A DNA stretch of 64,000 nucleotides. Origin: a virus. Position 1 is the stretch's first letter, and every line of letters starts with the position of its first letter. The position numbers were made by a program, and so were the translations under genes. Under the pieces are notes generated by a model, which did not search any database, was not told where the DNA came from, and saw only the letters and a list, made by a program, of their open reading frames with translations. Location: the IMG/VR virus record IMGVR_UViG_3300043466_002666. One strand, 5' to 3'. Of the stretch, positions 2,545 to 54,170 are shown one piece after another.

Positions 2545-4012
2545 GTTCTTTCCTTGTAAAATTTACTGGAATTATTTCATATTCAAAATTCTCTTCTGAA
2601 TATGTTTTAATTCTTTCTACTAGATGATTTAAAGTATAATTCTTTTTTTCTCCTTTTGAGAAATCGTCTGCGATGTCAAATAATTTTGCTTTTGATTTGT
2701 TTTCTCCTTTTCGCAATACTCTTCCGATGGATTGGAGATTTCTAACTCTTGATTTACTAGGGGAAGCAAAGATAACGTTATGTAGATTTCTAATGTTAAT
2801 ACCAGTAGAAAAAGTACCGTAAGAAGCAATGATGATGGCATTAGATTCTTCTTCTGTGAGTTTCCTTATTAATTCTCTTTCTTCGGTATCAACACCACCA
2901 TATACAAAGAATACTTTTCGTTTATCACCTACATCACTATTTATTATTTCGTGAAGTATCTTGCCATGTTTTTCTACCATAGCAAATAAAATTAGAGTGT
3001 TTCCTTCCTGATTTATTGCAAGATTTTTAATATAGTTGTTTCGTCGTTCATGACGACAAATGTAATCTATCTCTTCTTGATATGACTCAAATGGCGAATA
3101 ACCATGTTGGAGAAGAAGGATATTGATTTTGAGGTTTGAGAGATACCCCTTGTCTATCAAATTTTTGGTCTTAATAACCTTGTTAACAGGTCCAAATAAC
3201 CCCTCTAAAACGAGTTGATTTGTGCTTGACCCATCCAGAGTACCTGTGAACCCAATTCTATACTTGCAATTATGCAGTTTTGTCATGATCGTAATTAGTG
3301 ACTTGGCTTTGAATTGATGAGCCTCATCTCCAATTACAACATCATACTTTTCAAAGAAATTTTTTGGTAACTTATAAATTGATTGCCAAGTTGTAACAGT
3401 TACTTGTTTGTTAGTTTGTTTTGATTTGCCAGCATAAATTTTATGCACATCATCTCCCCACCCATAATCTTGAAAGTCTTTTGATAACTGTTCTACAAGA
3501 GAAGTAGTAGGTGTGATAATAAGTACATTTAAATTTCTATCAATATAATATCTCATGATGCAGTAAATCATTAAAGACTTACCAGATGCAGTTGGAGATA
3601 ATAACAGTTTACGATTATTTCGTAATGCTTCGTAAATTGCTTTGTATTGATAATCACGAACTTTAAATGGAATATTTAAAGATTTAACATAATCAACTAA
3701 ACCTTCTGGAGTTATTTGTTGATTGGAATCTTTAGGCATTCCATAAAATTTATTGTCTTTGTCAATATATGTGTATCCTCTAGAACAAAGCCATTCTGTT
3801 AGATAATCATACAGACCAACATATATTGTGCCTTCATATGGACTGAATAATTTAATCTTTCCATCCCATAATCTATTTTTATATTGAGGCATAAATTTCG
3901 CACCAGGAACCTCAAATGTAAAATACTCAGACAATTCATATTTTATATGAGGTTCACATTCAACAGTCAGATATACTTCATTCTTTTTTTGGATAATAAC
4001 GTCAGCCATCAA
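2537..4012 (-). CDS. uvsW: UvsW SF2 DNA/RNA-DNA helicase
   Basis: RDYQ, PTASGKS, DEAH, TGT, QSIGRVLR motifs; follows uvsY. Confidence 0.96.
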   Translation of the reverse strand: MMADVIIQKKNEVYLTVECEPHIKYELSEYFTFEVPGAKFMPQYKNRLWDGKIKLFSPYEGTIYVGLYDYLTEWLCSRGYTYIDKDNKFYGMPKDSNQQITPEGLVDYVKSLNIPFKVRDYQYKAIYEALRNNRKLLLSPTASGKSLMIYCIMRYYIDRNLNVLIITPTTSLVEQLSKDFQDYGWGDDVHKIYAGKSKQTNKQVTVTTWQSIYKLPKNFFEKYDVVIGDEAHQFKAKSLITIMTKLHNCKYRIGFTGTLDGSSTNQLVLEGLFGPVNKVIKTKNLIDKGYLSNLKINILLLQHGYSPFESYQEEIDYICRHERRNNYIKNLAINQEGNTLILFAMVEKHGKILHEIINSDVGDKRKVFFVYGGVDTEERELIRKLTEEESNAIIIASYGTFSTGINIRNLHNVIFASPSKSRVRNLQSIGRVLRKGENKSKAKLFDIADDFSKGEKKNYTLNHLVERIKTYSEENFEYEIIPVNFTRKEHE

Positions 4013-5041: not shown

Positions 5042-6433
5042 TCACATTAGGTTGATGACTCTGGTTCTTCTGTAGTAAACGTTGTCGTTTGCCTGTAGAG
5101 CACCAGAACGCTGGGTTAGACCACCTGCGAATGGGTTTGCAACCATGCCATAACGGGTCTTGAAGCCAATCTTTGGCTGGAAGGTGTCCTGACCGATGGA
5201 ACGAACCATCTGGAGAGGTACATATGGGCAATAGAAGAGACCTGCATCATATGCATTAGAACCCTTATAACCCATCACGTAGTAGTGATCGTTGGAGATA
5301 TTTGCTGAATATGGATCAACATATACCTTGATGCGACCATTTATTGTACCAGCTAGAGTTGATACGGTGTCGTCTGGAGTGTCTGAAGTGTTGAGTAGTG
5401 GGGTGTAATCCATTACCTTAGCAGCAGCTAGAGCACTTGCAACGTCTGCTGAACAGACGATGAAGTTACCCTTTCCTCTACGAGTCTCATGACCGATTGC
5501 GTTTGCATCACGCTCAATCTGGAATAGTAGACCCTTGAACTTCTCAACTGACCAACGACCATTGGAGTCAACGTCTAGGTCGAAAGTACCAGCGTTAGCT
5601 ACGTTATTCTGAGCACCAGGCTTAGCGGTTACGTAGATGGTACGAACAACTTCACGGTTGATTTCAGTTAGAATCTCTGAGCTTAGAATGTTAGCTAGCT
5701 CAGTCTCAGCATCAAGACCATGGATAGCCTTGAGGTCTTGTGCTAGTTCTAGGGTGTACTCAGCTTTTAGAGCACGGCTCTTTGCTGTTACAGTTACCTT
5801 CTCGATTGAGAAGCTCATTTCACGGAACTCAGATCCGCTTTCACCTAGAGCTTCAGCAGCGTTGGTGTTCATACCACCAACATAACCGTAATCGCCAGGG
5901 CTTGCTGCGTTTAGTACGCCAGGGTTGGTTGCACCTTCGCCAGTTGCAGCAGAGTATGCACCACCAGCAGCAGAGAAACCTGAAGGAACTTCGTTGAAGA
6001 AGGTCTCGTTGTCGAATACGTTTGGAGTAGCACCGTTACCATTACGGTCAGTACCACGATGAGCACGCATTGCGAAGATTAGACCAGTTGGACCGCTCAT
6101 TGGCTGAACACCGCAAATGTCATAAGCAATTAGCTTAGGCATTGAACGGCGGATTAGGCTGATTAGAACTGGGTCGAAACCTGCAACAGGACCACCAGCA
6201 GCAGCGCCACCTGAGAAGCCGTGAGCGCCTACACCAGCACCACCTGAGGTGAATGAACCAGTGCTATTAACTGCAACCTCGGAAAGAACACCACGCTCTT
6301 CACGTAGGAATGATTCTTGGTTCTCAAGAAGAACTGCGGTTACGGCCTTACGATATCTGTCTGTAATTGGGTTTAGATCGTTGTGCTCCAAAATAGGAGC
6401 CCATTTTCTTTGTAGCTGTTCTGAATTAAACAT
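5042..6433 (-). CDS. gp23: gp23 major capsid protein
   Basis: DPVLISLIRRSMPKLIAYDICGVQPMSGPTGLIFAMR, KSRALKAEYTLELAQDLKAIHGLDAE, FQPKIGFKTRYG. Confidence 0.99.
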   Translation of the reverse strand: MFNSEQLQRKWAPILEHNDLNPITDRYRKAVTAVLLENQESFLREERGVLSEVAVNSTGSFTSGGAGVGAHGFSGGAAAGGPVAGFDPVLISLIRRSMPKLIAYDICGVQPMSGPTGLIFAMRAHRGTDRNGNGATPNVFDNETFFNEVPSGFSAAGGAYSAATGEGATNPGVLNAASPGDYGYVGGMNTNAAEALGESGSEFREMSFSIEKVTVTAKSRALKAEYTLELAQDLKAIHGLDAETELANILSSEILTEINREVVRTIYVTAKPGAQNNVANAGTFDLDVDSNGRWSVEKFKGLLFQIERDANAIGHETRRGKGNFIVCSADVASALAAAKVMDYTPLLNTSDTPDDTVSTLAGTINGRIKVYVDPYSANISNDHYYVMGYKGSNAYDAGLFYCPYVPLQMVRSIGQDTFQPKIGFKTRYGMVANPFAGGLTQRSGALQANDNVYYRRTRVINLM

Positions 6434-48093: not shown

Positions 48094-48684
48094 TTAAATT
48101 TTTTTTAGTTTGGCGCAAGAACTTCCAGAGGAGATTGCATTATGTAAACTTTTGGCAAAAGCTTTTGGAGTTTTTGTTCTTGTTCTTAACTGAATCCAAT
48201 TCCAATTATCTTCAATCCAACCAGTTAAATTTGTACCACTATAAACTTCTCCAGTAATTCCATCTAAAAGTTTAAATTGTTTTGCAGTAATTTTAATCAT
48301 ATTCTCTTTTCTAGAGACCCACTTTAAATTATTTGCATGGTTGTTTAATTTATTAGAGTCAATGTGGTCAATTTCTTTGTACTTATGTGGATTTTCTAAG
48401 AAACATTCTGCTATTAATCTATGCACATAATATTTTATTTGCTTTTCAGTTTTCCCCTCGGCATTTTTTAGAGAAATATTAATGGCTAGATACCTATCAG
48501 TTGGATTACTTCCACCTCTTGGGTGTTGTTTTAATTCTCTAAGGCTTCCTTTTTTAGAGATACATCCAGAAGTTCCTTTAATATGTGTTGAATACCATTC
48601 AGTGAAAACTTTACCATCTTCTGAAACATAATAACCATCGAACTTTGTGGGTAAAATTTTCTGGGAAAAATTTTTTTGATTCAT
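48094..48684 (-). CDS. HNH homing endonuclease (NUMOD4-HNH type); likely start MNQKNF at 48684
   Basis: YYVSEDGKV, YVHRLIAECFLENP...IDHIDSNKLNNHANNLKWVSRKEN. Confidence 0.88.
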   Translation of the reverse strand: MNQKNFSQKILPTKFDGYYVSEDGKVFTEWYSTHIKGTSGCISKKGSLRELKQHPRGGSNPTDRYLAINISLKNAEGKTEKQIKYYVHRLIAECFLENPHKYKEIDHIDSNKLNNHANNLKWVSRKENMIKITAKQFKLLDGITGEVYSGTNLTGWIEDNWNWIQLRTRTKTPKAFAKSLHNAISSGSSCAKLKKI

Positions 48685-48764
48685 TGAGTATATCGAAGTC
48701 GATGGATAAGGTTTATAGCTTATATAGTATCTATTTTTTTCACGGCCCGGCGGGCCGGCGACCC

Positions 48765-48878
48765 ATAAGGCCCGCTTATACTGCCCTGCCCGACTGATCA
48801 GGACTGCTGATGGATCAGGAATGCTGATCTGTCTTGCCACTGGCTGATAAGCACTGCTGATGGATCAGGAATGCTGAT
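48765..48878. repeat. array of five AT(A/C)AG-N5-CT(T/G)AT palindromic boxes, including a 26-bp exact direct repeat
   Basis: Boxes at 48765, 48797, 48814, 48847 and 48864; ACTGCTGATGGATCAGGAATGCTGAT at 48803-48828 and 48853-48878. Confidence 0.85.
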
Positions 48879-49624: not shown

Positions 49625-49704
49625 GGTCTCGGGGTTGTGGGGGACCGTTTGCCCCCGTTGAAAGAATTATAGAGGGTGGAAGGGCCAGCTGTCAATCAGC
49701 TGGC
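49622..49704 (-). promoter_or_regulatory. early promoter/stem-loop/leader cassette, copy 1
   Basis: GGCCAGCTG-ATTGA-CAGCTGGCC hairpin containing TTGACA (49695-49690), 18 bp, TATAAT (49671-49666), then leader hairpin GGGGGCAAACGGTCCCC. Confidence 0.85.
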
Positions 49705-49713
49705 CTGTATGGG

Positions 49714-49998
49714 TCACCAATCGCTGGGGTCGTACTGATCACAGAGCCAGTCGGCCCGCTCAGCTTCTGTCATTGGCCTAGTGAGGCTGAGCGGGCCGCA
49801 GGCCCAGATCTCAGCTTCCTCGCCTTGCTCAACCGGGCAGGCCCAGCTGAGAATCATCCCAGAGGGGAGATACAGCCACGCCCTGGTGGGCTGGCCAGCC
49901 TTGGTATCCACATAGAGCCAGTGGATCACTGTCTGAAACTTAGGGGGAAGCTGGAGCTGGCCCACGGTGCAAGGGGTGAACAGATCAGCAGTTTGCAT
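49714..49998 (-). CDS. early hypothetical protein; likely start MQTADLF at 49998
   Basis: ORF behind cassette copy 2, with the same CCCGAGACC-ATG leader end as the 49624 gene. Confidence 0.72.
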   Translation of the reverse strand: MQTADLFTPCTVGQLQLPPKFQTVIHWLYVDTKAGQPTRAWLYLPSGMILSWACPVEQGEEAEIWACGPLSLTRPMTEAERADWLCDQYDPSDW

Positions 49999-50081
49999 GG
50001 TCTCGGGTGGTAGTGGGGGACCGTTTGCCCCCGTGATCACAATTGTAGAGGGTGGAAGGGCCAGCCGTCAAGCAGCTGGCC
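49996..50081 (-). promoter_or_regulatory. early promoter/stem-loop/leader cassette, copy 2
   Basis: Near-identical to 49622-49704; TTGACG (50071-50066), 18 bp, TACAAT (50047-50042). Confidence 0.85.
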
Positions 50082-50089
50082 CGATGGGC

Positions 50090-50413
50090 TCAAACTGTGG
50101 CGTTGCGATCCTGGCTCCAGTCCCGGAGCCGGCGAGTGCTGGCCTTGCTGAACACCCGGTCCCCAATGGTGCGGCCATCAGCCAGGGTGATTACAGAGCG
50201 CCCAGCGGCGTCAGCCGCTATCTGCAGAGCCTGGCGGCCAAGCTTGCGCTCTGCAGGCAGAGCGGTGGGGCTCTCCCACAGATCCAGCAACCATTGGGCA
50301 CGATGCCGGCCAACGATGCAGCCGGTTTTGATCGTGACCTTGGCTACTGCCACAGCCACGGGGGTGGGGATGCTGGTGCGGGTGAGGCGGTCAGAGCGGT
50401 TGGGGTTTGCCAT
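50090..50413 (-). CDS. early basic hypothetical protein
   Basis: 107 aa, AGGA SD, own TACAAT -10 at 50461-50456. Confidence 0.72.
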   Translation of the reverse strand: MANPNRSDRLTRTSIPTPVAVAVAKVTIKTGCIVGRHRAQWLLDLWESPTALPAERKLGRQALQIAADAAGRSVITLADGRTIGDRVFSKASTRRLRDWSQDRNATV

Positions 50414-50455: not shown

Positions 50456-50516
50456 ATTGTAGGGGATGGGGGGACCCTGCCTATGGGTCAGGCCCCGGAT
50501 TGTTGCAATCTGTCAC
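50456..50516 (-). promoter_or_regulatory. early promoter lacking -35, with HLR1-like direct repeat
   Basis: GTGACAGA-TT-GCAACAAT (50516-50499), 37 bp upstream of TACAAT. Confidence 0.55.
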
Positions 50517-50794
50517 ACTGACGGCAACCCAGCAACCCAGGCTGCTGCAGCCGCCAAGCTGGAGAACTCAGCTCCCACGCTGGGGCATTGCCAGACGCTA
50601 AAGCAGCGGCGCTCCCATTGGCCGGCGTCATTGTGATCGTATGGGGCGTCTACCATAACGCTCACAACCTGATCCACTCGGATCAAGTGAACCCAGCCAC
50701 GGCGGCCCCTGATGGCGGCCTGCCAGTCCCGAACCCAGCGGCGCTGGCCGGGAGCTGGAGAGAAGACGGCTGGGCGGGAAGCTTGGCTGATCAT
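50513..50794 (-). CDS. early hypothetical protein (Trp-rich)
   Basis: 93 aa behind a TATACT -10 at 50824-50819. Confidence 0.68.
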   Translation of the reverse strand: MISQASRPAVFSPAPGQRRWVRDWQAAIRGRRGWVHLIRVDQVVSVMVDAPYDHNDAGQWERRCFSVWQCPSVGAEFSSLAAAAAWVAGLPSV

Positions 50795-50818
50795 GGCTGA
50801 ATGCCTCAGGACTCATTA

Positions 50819-50879
50819 AGTATACAGACTAGGAAGGGCCAGCCGTGGCTGACTGACCCGGTTTGTTGCAAAGCTTAAT
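50819..50879 (-). promoter_or_regulatory. early promoter lacking -35, with HLR1-like direct repeat
   Basis: ATTAAGCT-TT-GCAACAAA (50879-50862), 37 bp upstream of TATACT. Confidence 0.5.
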
Positions 50880-50881
50880 CT

Positions 50882-51640
50882 CTACACTTTGCTGGTGAGA
50901 ATCGGCTGAAGCTCTTTACGATAGCCTCCGAACTTACCAGCCCGGCGGCGTGCAAACAATGCTTTGCCGTAGGTTGAACCTTTAGGCTGGGTTGAATGCA
51001 CAAGCAAAGCAAACGGATTGTCGCCGAAACAGTGGCTATCATCATGATCAACCTCTAAACCCAAAGCCTCAGCTTCCTCGTCATTGTGAACCACTTTACT
51101 ATAACGAGGGAACAAACCTTCGTCGATCATGTGATCGAACTTGCCCCCATAGCTGGCGGTCATGTAGAAGTTAGAAGGCAACTCCAAACCTACAAACAGC
51201 GGCAGGTTCTTGCTGTAGCAGTAGAACTTGAGATCAGGATTAAGCTTGGCAACCTCTAGCCAAGCGAGCAAGTAAGCGAGGCTAAAGAAGTCGCCGGACT
51301 CGTGAATTCTCACCAGCTCGATCCTTTTAGTGCGAGCATTCTGCAGGCTGGTGTTCAACAACTCTACAGCAGTGCTGGCCTTAATCGCATCTGCGATTAG
51401 CTGGAGATTGCGAGCCCGAGAGAAAAACGGGCCATCGTATTGTGCCTCGCTGGTTGCAGCAAAGCACCGAAACTGAGTTTGCGGGCCGTCTTGAATGTGG
51501 CGCTTGCCGTTCTCACCAACAACAGCAAAGCTCAGGCAGAAAAGGGCACCGGGGCAGGTCTTGCCTGCCGGCAGGTTGAAAATCAGAGTTTGCTTGCCAA
51601 GCTTGGCGTTGCCGGTGGAAAAGGTCAGCAGATCAGACAT
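50882..51640 (-). CDS. GP88-family protein (radical-SAM-like, Cys-containing)
   Basis: GNAKL, LPAGKTCPGA..C, CFA, RIHESGDFFS, FYCYSK motifs. Confidence 0.8.
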   Translation of the reverse strand: MSDLLTFSTGNAKLGKQTLIFNLPAGKTCPGALFCLSFAVVGENGKRHIQDGPQTQFRCFAATSEAQYDGPFFSRARNLQLIADAIKASTAVELLNTSLQNARTKRIELVRIHESGDFFSLAYLLAWLEVAKLNPDLKFYCYSKNLPLFVGLELPSNFYMTASYGGKFDHMIDEGLFPRYSKVVHNDEEAEALGLEVDHDDSHCFGDNPFALLVHSTQPKGSTYGKALFARRRAGKFGGYRKELQPILTSKV

Positions 51641-51667
51641 GGGTCTGTGTCGGTGGTTGACTTGAAA

Positions 51668-51719
51668 ATCTTAGCAGGTGGGAAGGGCCAGGCTGGCCGG
51701 CCCTGTAACAAAATGAAAT
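51668..51719 (-). promoter_or_regulatory. early promoter lacking -35, with HLR1-like direct repeat
   Basis: ATTTCATT-TT-GTTACAGG (51719-51702), 28 bp upstream of TAAGAT, which carries a TG extension. Confidence 0.6.
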
Positions 51720-51720
51720 A

Positions 51721-51885
51721 CTATACTTTAGCCAGGCAATTGTCGATAAAGACAAACAGCTCGCCCAGGTCAATGGTAGAGTTAACCCAGCGAACAGCAG
51801 AGCCATATTCAGCCAAGAATTCATCAGCAACTAGACACCCAGCTGCAAAGTCTAGGGCTTCAAAATAGCTTAGGGTCGGGTTCAT
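51721..51885 (-). CDS. early small hypothetical protein (54 aa, not in ORF track)
   Basis: MNPTLSYFEALDFAAGCLVADEFLAEYGSAVRWVNSTIDLGELFVFIDNCLAKV behind a TAGGAT -10. Confidence 0.7.
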   Translation of the reverse strand: MNPTLSYFEALDFAAGCLVADEFLAEYGSAVRWVNSTIDLGELFVFIDNCLAKV

Positions 51886-51909
51886 TGGTGTGCCTGCAAG
51901 TGCCTGTTA

Positions 51910-51961
51910 ATCCTACAGCAATGGGTGAGCCCGAAGACTCACCCATGTAACATTATGTAAT
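51910..51961 (-). promoter_or_regulatory. early promoter lacking -35, with near-consensus HLR1 repeat and UUCG hairpin
   Basis: ATTACATA-AT-GTTACATG (51961-51944), 28 bp upstream of TAGGAT; spacer is the hairpin TGGGTGAGTC-TTCG-GGCTCACCCA. Confidence 0.65.
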
Positions 51962-51963
51962 AT

Positions 51964-52155
51964 CTACATCTCCAGCTGCCAATCTTGGTCTTTAAGTATA
52001 TTTACCCAAAAGAAGTTTCGTCCATTCATACTACGCAGGAACACTTTGTCTCCTTTGTGTTGTTCTACAATACAATGTTCGCATGATTCCATTAGATTAG
52101 CGAACCTGTTTTTAGCTTTCTTTGAGATTGGCTTAACCGAAATCATCGGATCCAT
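51964..52155 (-). CDS. conserved cyanophage-type small hypothetical protein
   Basis: 63 aa, PISKKAKNRFANLM...CIVEQ...FFWV. Confidence 0.75.
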   Translation of the reverse strand: MDPMISVKPISKKAKNRFANLMESCEHCIVEQHKGDKVFLRSMNGRNFFWVNILKDQDWQLEM

Positions 52156-52185
52156 GATGAGACTTTGCGATTGATTATGCTTAAT

Positions 52186-52236
52186 AATTTAAGCATGATG
52201 AGAGCAGCAATGAGTTCAGCTGTCACAATTTGTTAT
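52186..52236 (-). promoter_or_regulatory. early promoter lacking -35, with HLR1-like direct repeat
   Basis: ATAACAAA-TT-GTGACAGC (52236-52219), about 27 bp upstream of TAAATT. Confidence 0.5.
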
Positions 52237-52283
52237 AGTTAATAATTTGGTGGGGAGTTGCCTCCCCGTGTATAGTTAATAAT

Positions 52284-52577: not shown

Positions 52578-52633
52578 AATGTAGCTGGTGGGGGCTGAGG
52601 TTGTCAACCCCTTTGGGCCAGTTTCAGAATTGG
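52578..52633 (-). promoter_or_regulatory. early promoter cassette (duplicated at 52921-52976)
   Basis: TTGACA-18-TACATT plus upstream CCAGTT-N4-AATTGG; about 52-bp near-identical copy at 52921. Confidence 0.82.
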
Positions 52634-52920: not shown

Positions 52921-52976
52921 AATGTAGCTGGTAGGGGTTGGACTTGTCAACCCCTTTGGGCCGGTTTCAGAACTGT
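52921..52976 (-). promoter_or_regulatory. early promoter cassette, second copy
   Basis: TTGACA (52950-52945), 18 bp, TACATT; CCGGTT-N4-AACTGT 10 bp upstream of the -35. Confidence 0.82.
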
Positions 52977-53143
52977 CAGTCTAGGCAACCGTTGGCGTTC
53001 AGCCAGCCAGCACACCAGCCCTCACCAGTGTAGCATCCGACATAGTAGTTGCCAATTGAAATACCAAACTGTTCTTCCATGTGGTAGGTATTCTTCAGAT
53101 CCCAACCGAGATAGAAGAACTTGGTGTGAATGGAGAATTTCAT
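52976..53143 (-). CDS. early small hypothetical protein (55 aa, not in ORF track)
   Basis: MKFSIHTKFFYLGWDLKNTYHMEEQFGISIGNYYVGCYTGEGWCAGWLNANGCLD behind its own promoter. Confidence 0.7.
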   Translation of the reverse strand: MKFSIHTKFFYLGWDLKNTYHMEEQFGISIGNYYVGCYTGEGWCAGWLNANGCLD

Positions 53144-53166: not shown

Positions 53167-53222
53167 AGTATGGCATGGGTTGGGGGCTGGTGTCAACCCC
53201 CTGATTGATTAGTAATACTAAT
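53167..53222 (-). promoter_or_regulatory. early promoter with LysR-type box
   Basis: TTGACA (53196-53191), 18 bp, TGc-CATACT; ATTAG-N5-CTAAT at 53208-53222. Confidence 0.75.
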
Positions 53223-53404
53223 CAGACATCATAACAGAGGTATTCCATCATCTCTTCTTTATACATTGCAGTCTCAGCTTCAGTGTTAAATTTAACACCT
53301 GCGAGGAAGTTGTAATGGTCAACCCAAGATGCACACCATGTCATTTTGTAGTCATGATTTGCAACTGAGTTGTACTGATTGCAAGTGTCGAGAATCAGAG
53401 CCAT
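53222..53404 (-). CDS. early small hypothetical protein
   Basis: 60 aa behind a TTGACA-17-TAAGTT promoter. Confidence 0.7.
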   Translation of the reverse strand: MALILDTCNQYNSVANHDYKMTWCASWVDHYNFLAGVKFNTEAETAMYKEEMMEYLCYDV

Positions 53405-53809: not shown

Positions 53810-53910
53810 AATATAGGCCATTTTCGGGTGCCTGTCAAGTGGTGAATGATTAGCAATGCTTATGGGTGTATGATGTATAGTTAATAATCTCTGATATTAG
53901 CAATACTAAT
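53810..53910 (-). promoter_or_regulatory. early promoter with LysR-type boxes
   Basis: TTGACA (53838-53833), 17 bp, TATATT; boxes at 53849-53863 and 53896-53910. Confidence 0.7.
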
Positions 53911-53975
53911 CGGAGGGGCTCGGAATGATTTGGAGTCCTTATGGGTTTTTTGATGGGTTTTTTGGGCCGGGGGGC

Positions 53976-54009: not shown

Positions 54010-54170
54010 CCAAGACTGCTGAACCTCCGAACCTTTCTGAGACAATCAGACACATTCGGAGGTATACAGTATATACTTAATAATCTATCACATATACTTG
54101 GAGGTATACAGTATATACTTAATAATCTATCACATATACTTGGAGGTATACAGTATATACTTAATAATTC
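54010..54170 (+). ncRNA. putative structured non-coding RNA or origin primer transcript
   Basis: Downstream of a consensus promoter with no credible ORF; stems ACCTCCGAA/TTCGGAGGT and TCTGA/TCAGA, then tandem repeats. Confidence 0.45.
54058..54168. repeat. 42-bp tandem repeat, about 2.6 copies
   Basis: GGAGGTATACAGTATATACTTAATAATCTATCACATATACTT at 54058 and 54100, partial copy at 54142. Confidence 0.95.

Follow-up and report, generated by a model that had tools for sequence, protein, structure and literature searches.

Four short boxes in a 64,000-nucleotide (nt) stretch of viral DNA (IMG/VR record IMGVR_UViG_3300043466_002666; the whole stretch is hereafter called the window) are probably the upstream boxes of promoter-early stem-loop (PeSL)-type cassettes of a T4-like cyanomyovirus, located in its hyperplastic early region. 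These boxes, s2–s5, together with s1 make up five 18-mers that a sequence-only reading of the window had presented as direct repeats resembling HLR1, the site of the cyanobacterial regulator RpaB, upstream of promoters with a -10 element and no -35 element. PeSLs are known from the T4-like phages RB49/phi1, T4/PST and KVP40/nt-1 (Arbiol 2010, PMC2839356; Comeau 2014, PMC4122927). They are defined by an AT-rich stop-codon stretch, an early promoter of the sigma-70 type, a GGGG..CCCC stem-loop in variable position, a leader and a start codon, and they are recombination joints (PMC2839356, PMC4122927). For the cyanophage S-PM2, sparse PeSL-like elements only are on record (PMC4503421).

Direct sequence matching recovered each of the five 18-mers once, on the minus strand and at the position first reported, and the gaps given to the named -10 boxes, 27–28 nt for s1–s3 and 37 nt for s4 and s5, were correct. 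All intergenic spacers between 48.9 and 54.2 kb are built alike, with a stop codon, a short box, a GC-rich hairpin, a -10, a leader and an ATG. The hairpin that follows each of the s2–s5 boxes, a feature absent from the sequence-only reading, fills the -35 region and has a stability of -13.5 to -20.8 kcal/mol. The description of the promoters as devoid of a -35 was accurate for s2–s4, but for s5 a 4/6 match to the -35, TAGGCA, is present at 16 nt.

We compared the window with 80 loci carrying homologues of its GP88-family gene and 80 loci carrying homologues of the 63-amino-acid (aa) open reading frame (ORF) that precedes s2. Related loci and contigs bear L-numbers; L081 and L082 are IMG/VR contigs syntenic with the window at 46–58 kb, and L107 is the cultured phage S-SRM01. 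Boxes s2–s5 are members of one family, comprising the D-box, ATTWCRWWTTGTWACA, which lies directly after the stop codon and has the pattern ATTWC, five bases, GTWACA, and the E-box, ATTAAGCTTTGCAACA, as in s4. The 16-nt core used for both boxes is the previously reported 18-mer minus its last 2 nt, hence gaps measured from the core read 2 nt longer. The elements of the four cassettes are as follows:

51944..51961, minus strand: s2 box ATTACATAATGTTACATG, a D-box that fits HLR1 best of all (2 mismatches); L081 and L082 carry the identical sequence, and L108 differs by one substitution
51923..51944, minus strand: hairpin of the s2 cassette, between s2 and the -10, with an 11-base-pair (bp) stem and a cUUCGg loop; -20.8 kcal/mol
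51910..51915, minus strand: -10 TAGGAT of the s2 cassette, by consensus match, no -35
51702..51719, minus strand: s3 box ATTTCATTTTGTTACAGG, an exact fit to the D-box consensus, 4 HLR1 mismatches
51685..51703, minus strand: hairpin of the s3 cassette, GGGCCGGCCAGCCTGGCCC; crossover site of the ~260-bp ORF indel relative to L081 and L082
51668..51673, minus strand: -10 TAAGAT (TGC-extended), by consensus match, in the cassette of the GP88 gene
50862..50879, minus strand: s4 box ATTAAGCTTTGCAACAAA, an E-box, with 6 mismatches to HLR1 and 3 to the D-box
50836..50859, minus strand: hairpin of the s4 cassette; -16.3 kcal/mol
50819..50824, minus strand: -10 TATACT of the s4 cassette, by consensus match, 39 nt past the 16-mer
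50499..50516, minus strand: s5 box GTGACAGATTGCAACAAT; its distal half contains the TGA stop of the upstream ORF and its proximal half is TTGCAACA
50471..50496, minus strand: hairpin of the s5 cassette, with TAGGCA in the loop
50456..50461, minus strand: -10 TACAAT of the s5 cassette, by consensus match

The D-box set comprises 11 distinct cassettes, those of s2 and s3 in the window and those of L108, L115, L181, L109, L110, L118, L116, L082 and L081. The gap between the 18-mer and the -10 is 27–28 nt in all 11, despite at least seven unrelated hairpin sequences. Columns A1, T2, T3, C5, T10, G11, T12 and A14 are invariant across this set, and C15 and A16 are nearly so; invariant columns make up 44% of the box, as compared to 17% of the third codon positions of the upstream ORF (eight loci sharing that ORF). 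The s4 box recurs unchanged in L003, L004 and the L001/L082 contig, with a close variant in L081. A wider scan yielded 24 distinct D-box or E-box cassettes, in which the end of the core lies 29–30 nt (15/24) or 38–39 nt (7/24) from the -10, and in 20 of these 24 the best -35 match is at most 3/6, which is background level. The proposal of two registers about one helical turn apart therefore holds family-wide, because most of the 24 cassettes, with differing hairpins and background -35 matches, keep to two discrete gaps. For s2–s5, we thus take promoters without a -35 and with a repeat-like box in two registers to be a real property of this phage family.

Among the cassettes orthologous to that of s5, those of L002 and L003 have a D-box, and those of L082 and L004 have an E-box. 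The cassettes of L003, L082 and L004 share the long register with the window; in L002 the first called -10 lies at 34 nt and looks miscalled. Although s4 is at background as an HLR1 match, good D-boxes are found in orthologous cassettes at the place of s4 and of the s5 box, its close relation. A degenerate D-box scan of IMG/VR returned, outside the close group, matches that are mostly due to chance.

Taken together, a model for these cassettes emerges. Each cassette would supply, in order, the stop of the preceding gene, a 16–18-nt box, a GC-rich hairpin, a -10, a conserved leader and the next start codon. The hairpin may attenuate read-through and occupy the -35 region, while the box would be bound by a transcription activator that, from about -50 or -59, recruits the RNA polymerase of the host. 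The s2–s5 boxes thus most likely act as upstream activator sites of promoters without a -35, and the balance of the sequence evidence favors a sequence-specific activator of some kind at these boxes. For s2 and s3, the leading named candidate would be an OmpR-type response regulator such as RpaB. We also considered and rejected a cruciform mechanism, in which extrusion of the hairpin brings TTGNNACA to -35 spacing, because the linear distance is constant while the hairpin length varies from 17 to 28 nt.

Several points weigh against this model. Classical PeSLs have a full -35/-10 promoter, whereas the s2–s4 cassettes have a -10 only and that of s5 a 4/6 match to the -35. The -10 assignments are consensus matches only, and the s2–s5 hairpins are devoid of the T-run of a canonical intrinsic terminator. 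The constant distances and the identity of the boxes are in part inherited and not independently selected, because the cassettes are related by descent and gene conversion. Moreover, a single protein partner for the D-box and the E-box is uncertain, because the E-box (s4, s5) and the D-box share only ATTW....TTG..ACA.

A role in RNA would also fit the position of the boxes, which have a stop codon on one side and, on the other, a very stable hairpin whose tetraloops include UUCG and GCAA. The upstream mRNA would then have box and hairpin as its 3' end, the box serving as an AU-rich ribonuclease site and the hairpin after it as a protective stem-loop, and the adjoining '-10' would be incidental; that the stem is kept while the hairpin sequence varies agrees with such a role. 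However, a fixed spacing between box and -10 would be meaningless for a 3'-end element, neighbouring cassettes bear full consensus promoters, for example TTGACA-18-TATAAT, and the inner positions of the A-box, described below, show identity and not complementarity between the two halves. We regard this explanation as very unlikely.

A function in DNA exchange is evident from the comparison with close relatives. Every indel that distinguishes L081 and L082 from the window between 46 and 58 kb ends in a cassette, and the breakpoints of single-gene indels among close relatives lie inside boxes and hairpins. L082 is without the ORF at 50513–50794 and possesses one hybrid cassette instead, the left part of which is s4 up to TTGCAACAA and the right part of which is the s5 hairpin and -10; the crossover is located in TTGCAACAA. 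In both L081 and L082 the s3 hairpin is present twice, with an extra ORF of ~260 bp in between, and the s3 cassette of the window is therefore one copy's upstream box joined to the other's -10 and leader. Since common descent accounts for the TTGCAACAA found in both s4 and s5, the five sites do not count as independent. Judged by these breakpoints, the repeated boxes and hairpins are homologous-recombination joints for the gain and loss of single genes.

Recombination could in principle be the main reason why the boxes are kept. According to this explanation, the boxes have no dedicated protein partner; they would be AT-rich, UP-element-like sequence and stop-codon context, maintained mainly as a homology patch for cassette recombination. 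Crossovers do map within boxes, and the proportion of invariant box columns, 44%, is no higher than the 38% average of the adjacent coding sequence. On the other hand, conservation is concentrated in particular columns, among them C5, G11 and C15, amid an AT-rich context, and the boxes keep to two discrete distances from the -10 even as the length and sequence of the hairpin vary, a constancy for which a mere patch has no need. We consider it unlikely that the boxes are such a patch, and prefer the model in which they are upstream activator sites.

Given the architecture of the boxes, we asked how well they fit HLR1. Fit was scored as mismatches to the 16 specified positions of KTTACAWWNNKTTACAWW, that is, (G/T)TTACA(T/A)(T/A)-N2-(G/T)TTACA(T/A)(T/A), a consensus and not a weight matrix. 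The s2 box differs at 2/16 positions; matches this good have a frequency, per position, of 5e-5 in the window and of 2.8e-5 in related loci. The s3 and s5 boxes have 4/16 mismatches each (frequency in the window 3.7e-3), s1 has 5/16 (1.7e-2) and s4 has 6/16 (5.6e-2). The reported likeness to HLR1 thus stands above background for s2, at 2 mismatches, and not for s1, s3, s4 and s5, for which 4–6 mismatches amount to background. No enrichment of HLR1 was found across the window, with 85 matches at up to 3 mismatches against 72 +/- 9 in shuffles. A set of 234 distinct hairpin-plus--10 cassettes with full upstream flank, drawn from related loci, contained an HLR1-like match (up to 4 mismatches) in 24/234 cases, as compared to 2.8 in shuffles; many of these belong to the A-box and D-box families.

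Two further strong HLR1-like matches, in L027/L161, were rejected: the forward one belongs, as a variant, to another conserved non-coding element, and the reverse one is not conserved. An inverted HLR1 with a single mismatch was observed in L003 at 3654–3671 (plus strand TGTGTAAACCTTTGTAAC), adjoining the cassette hairpin and ending ~31 nt before a -10, TAGACT; among its orthologues, the window cassette has a normal -35 and L002 has an A-box half.

These scores bear on the proposal that the boxes are HLR1 sites bound by host RpaB of the Hik33/NblS pathway, which would activate the promoters without a -35 in low or normal light and release them in high light. Part of the phage early programme would thereby be light- or redox-gated. 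Besides the 2-mismatch score of s2, the conserved D-box columns T2, T3, C5, G11, T12 and A14, with C15 and A16 nearly always, coincide with core columns of HLR1 and have its 10-bp spacing. Activating-class HLR1 sites of the RpaB regulon, for example those of photosystem I promoters, lie 45–66 nt upstream of where transcription begins (Riediger 2019, PMC6525291). Measured from the predicted -10, the 18-mers would lie at about -41 to -58 or -50 to -67, with centres near -49.5 (s2, s3) and -58.5 (s4, s5), within that activating zone. HLR1 occurrences in cyanophage genomes have been published previously, and the promoters resemble activator-dependent cyanobacterial promoters in having no -35.

The details of the boxes fit RpaB less well. 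In addition to the background-level scores of s3, s5, s1 and s4 and the lack of enrichment in the window, core position 4 is T in 8/11 D-boxes, so that the first half reads TTTCA or TTTCG and not TTACA. Position 1 is A in 11/11, positions 17–18 are usually G, and GTAACA takes the place of GTTACA in 3/11. The TTACA cores are not kept in orthologous promoters, in which the E-box ATTAAGCTTTGCAACA loses both, and s1 is the region of a start codon. Overall, the RpaB label appears to fit s2 well and s3 moderately, and not s1, s4 and s5. We therefore view the proposal as a whole as doubtful: binding of s2 and s3 by RpaB is possible at a tentative level, and binding of all of s2–s5 appears distinctly unlikely.

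The s1 box stands apart from the other four. Its surroundings contain the following elements:

52219..52236, minus strand: s1 box ATAACAAATTGTGACAGC, in which a small ORF has its GTG start and very short leader; 5 mismatches to HLR1, 2 to the D-box consensus
52143..52226, minus strand: ORF of a 27-aa hydrophobic peptide (MTAEL...RKVSSWIR), GTG start, previously unlisted
52252..52267, minus strand: GC hairpin GGGGAG-GCAA-CUCCCC, upstream of the 27-aa ORF

The GTG within TTGTGACA (52226–52224) is the start of the 27-aa ORF, which overlaps the 63-aa ORF in that its stop codon falls on the latter's first codons. Conservation of the peptide's amino-acid sequence was seen in L108, L002, L004 and L110, and variants of it occur in L001 and L118. 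The assignment of s1 as an upstream promoter site was not borne out: its GTG opens this conserved ORF, and the proposed -10, TAAATT, consists of codons of the same ORF. The promoter of the 27-aa ORF itself is, by our prediction, the hairpin at 52267–52252 with an AT-rich -10 just upstream, an arrangement that leaves almost no leader.

Beyond the D-box and the E-box, a second family is widespread in the related loci. An ACA-ending box adjoins the hairpin in 131 of the 234 cassettes; its consensus, tGTGACAgTyTnnnAAsTGGCACA, is an imperfect dyad that we call the A-box. It spans 24–25 nt and often contains the upstream TGA stop (L001–L080 and S-SRM01, L107), and it is thus present in a cultured phage. 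The end of the A-box lies 29–31 nt before the -10 in 77% of 91 cases, with hairpin lengths of 17–28 nt that correlate with spacer length at r = -0.65. Of the 50 cassettes in which both A-box halves are present, 4% have a -35 match of at least 5/6, as compared to 54% of cassettes with a CTRATCA box. In the window, the cassettes at 52979 and 52632 (52955–52979 and 52612–52632, minus strand) are A-box variants with a full -35. A reading of the A-box as an RNA hairpin was rejected: there was no complementary covariation, and the inner positions correlate by identity.

The neighbouring cassettes of the window at 49695, 50071, 52607, 52950 and 53196 carry both a -35 and a -10. The -35 lies in the hairpin loop in TTGACA-18-TATAAT (49695), TTGACG-18-TACAAT (50071) and TTGACA-18-TACATT (52607, 52950). 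An 84-nt cassette is duplicated with 83% identity at 49633–49716 and 50009–50092, the promoters being TTGACA-18-TATAAT and TTGACG-18-TACAAT; each copy has its -35 in the hairpin loop and a second hairpin in the leader. Palindromic boxes of the ATTAG-N5-CTAAT type (53207–53224, 53895–53912) lie upstream of cassettes that possess a -35, and the CTRATCA-ending class of these boxes was seen again in related contigs. A conserved non-coding element of ~110 nt was observed downstream of homologues of the 63-aa ORF in relatives at a greater distance, among them L161 (equivalent to L027 1615–1740), L121, L163 and L175. Its first hairpin, GGAGG..CCTCC, is followed by a conserved middle part and then by a terminator of the GGGGTGGTGCC type that has a T-run. 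The element has no Rfam match and is a candidate small RNA.

The assignment to a T4-like cyanomyovirus is evident from the gene content of the window. A 463-aa ORF at 5042–6433 is the major capsid protein, with ~70% identity to those of the Synechococcus myoviruses S-CREM1, S-H38 and S-SZBM1, and a baseplate gene matches gp8 of S-SM1. The long ORFs are all on the minus strand. The GC content is 30–37% across the window except for an island of ~62% at 49–51 kb, which drops to ~50% at 51–52 kb; s1–s5 are located in and just past this island, among small ORFs with no known function. The genes surrounding the boxes are:

51964..52155, minus strand: 63-aa ORF, phrog_1653 (function unknown), its stop codon directly before s2
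51721..51885, minus strand: 54-aa ORF, downstream of the s2 cassette
50882..51640, minus strand: GP88-family gene (PF17338, E 1.7e-41), the exception among small ORFs with no known function
50513..50794, minus strand: 93-aa ORF, absent from the close relative L082, an indel of one gene that has the s4 and s5 boxes as its borders
50090..50413, minus strand: 107-aa ORF, downstream of the s5 cassette

Pfam and PHROGs searches of the small ORFs returned families of unknown function only, and Rfam gave zero matches in the window or in four related loci. Two repeats were observed at the borders of this region. A 29-nt repeat occurs in two copies, 97% identical and 50 nt apart, at 48800–48878, directly past the last GC-rich cassette, and an HNH endonuclease ORF (48094–48840, PF13392) crosses the first copy. 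Three tandem 42-nt units (ATCAC.TATACTTGGAGGTATACAGTATATACTTAATAATCT) occupy 54045–54170, in ORF-poor DNA bordering the cassette region.

PeSL cassettes account for the shuffling of accessory genes in T4-like phages and have been described mainly in enterobacterial and Vibrio phages. Here, a cyanomyovirus lineage has PeSL cassettes at one per gene, with an extra layer of sequence-specific boxes that replace the -35 at fixed helical registers. If the boxes bind host regulators such as RpaB, every portable cassette would carry its own conditional switch, and control of phage early genes by the light or redox state of the host would be directly testable with a few short probes. A bolder and, in our estimate, improbable extension is that coastal and freshwater Synechococcus cyanomyoviruses sort their early one-gene cassettes among interchangeable operator boxes (D/E-box, the 25-bp dyad A-box and CTRATCA), each type having its own reader among the regulators of host or phage; for the D-box class this would be RpaB, the redox/light regulator of the host. 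Cassette recombination would then re-wire which genes respond to the physiological state of the host.

Among known systems, the PeSLs are the closest to the cassettes described here. The window cassettes likewise sit between small ORFs without known function in the hyperplastic region of a T4-like phage, begin in an AT-rich stretch that contains the upstream gene's stop codon, and hold a GC-rich GGGG..CCCC stem-loop in or beside the promoter, and one-gene indels between close relatives have their crossover points in the repeats. They differ in that the host is a cyanobacterium and in the sequence-specific bipartite box that stands 29–30 or 38–39 nt from the -10, across the hairpin. In the middle promoters of T4, a MotA box centred at -30 stands in for the -35; these promoters, likewise of a T4-like phage, resemble the window cassettes in pairing a -10 with an upstream activator box instead of a -35, whereas the box of the window lies at -50 or -59. 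To our knowledge, cyanomyoviruses possess neither MotA nor AsiA. The HLR1 sites of the RpaB regulon resemble the boxes in having two conserved blocks one helical turn apart, in lying 45–66 nt upstream of the predicted start, and in serving a core promoter without a -35. They differ in that the first half of the window boxes is usually TTTCA as opposed to TTACA, with different flanks, in the GC hairpin that the window has between box and -10, and in the E-box variant, which loses both cores. Lastly, control of cyanophage pstS by PhoB through a Pho-box, reportedly described by Zeng and Chisholm in 2012, is a precedent in which phage genes are driven, via a tandem-repeat box, by a response regulator of the OmpR family that belongs to the host, although that motif consists of 8-bp repeats with a period of 11 bp, and both the genes and the signal differ.

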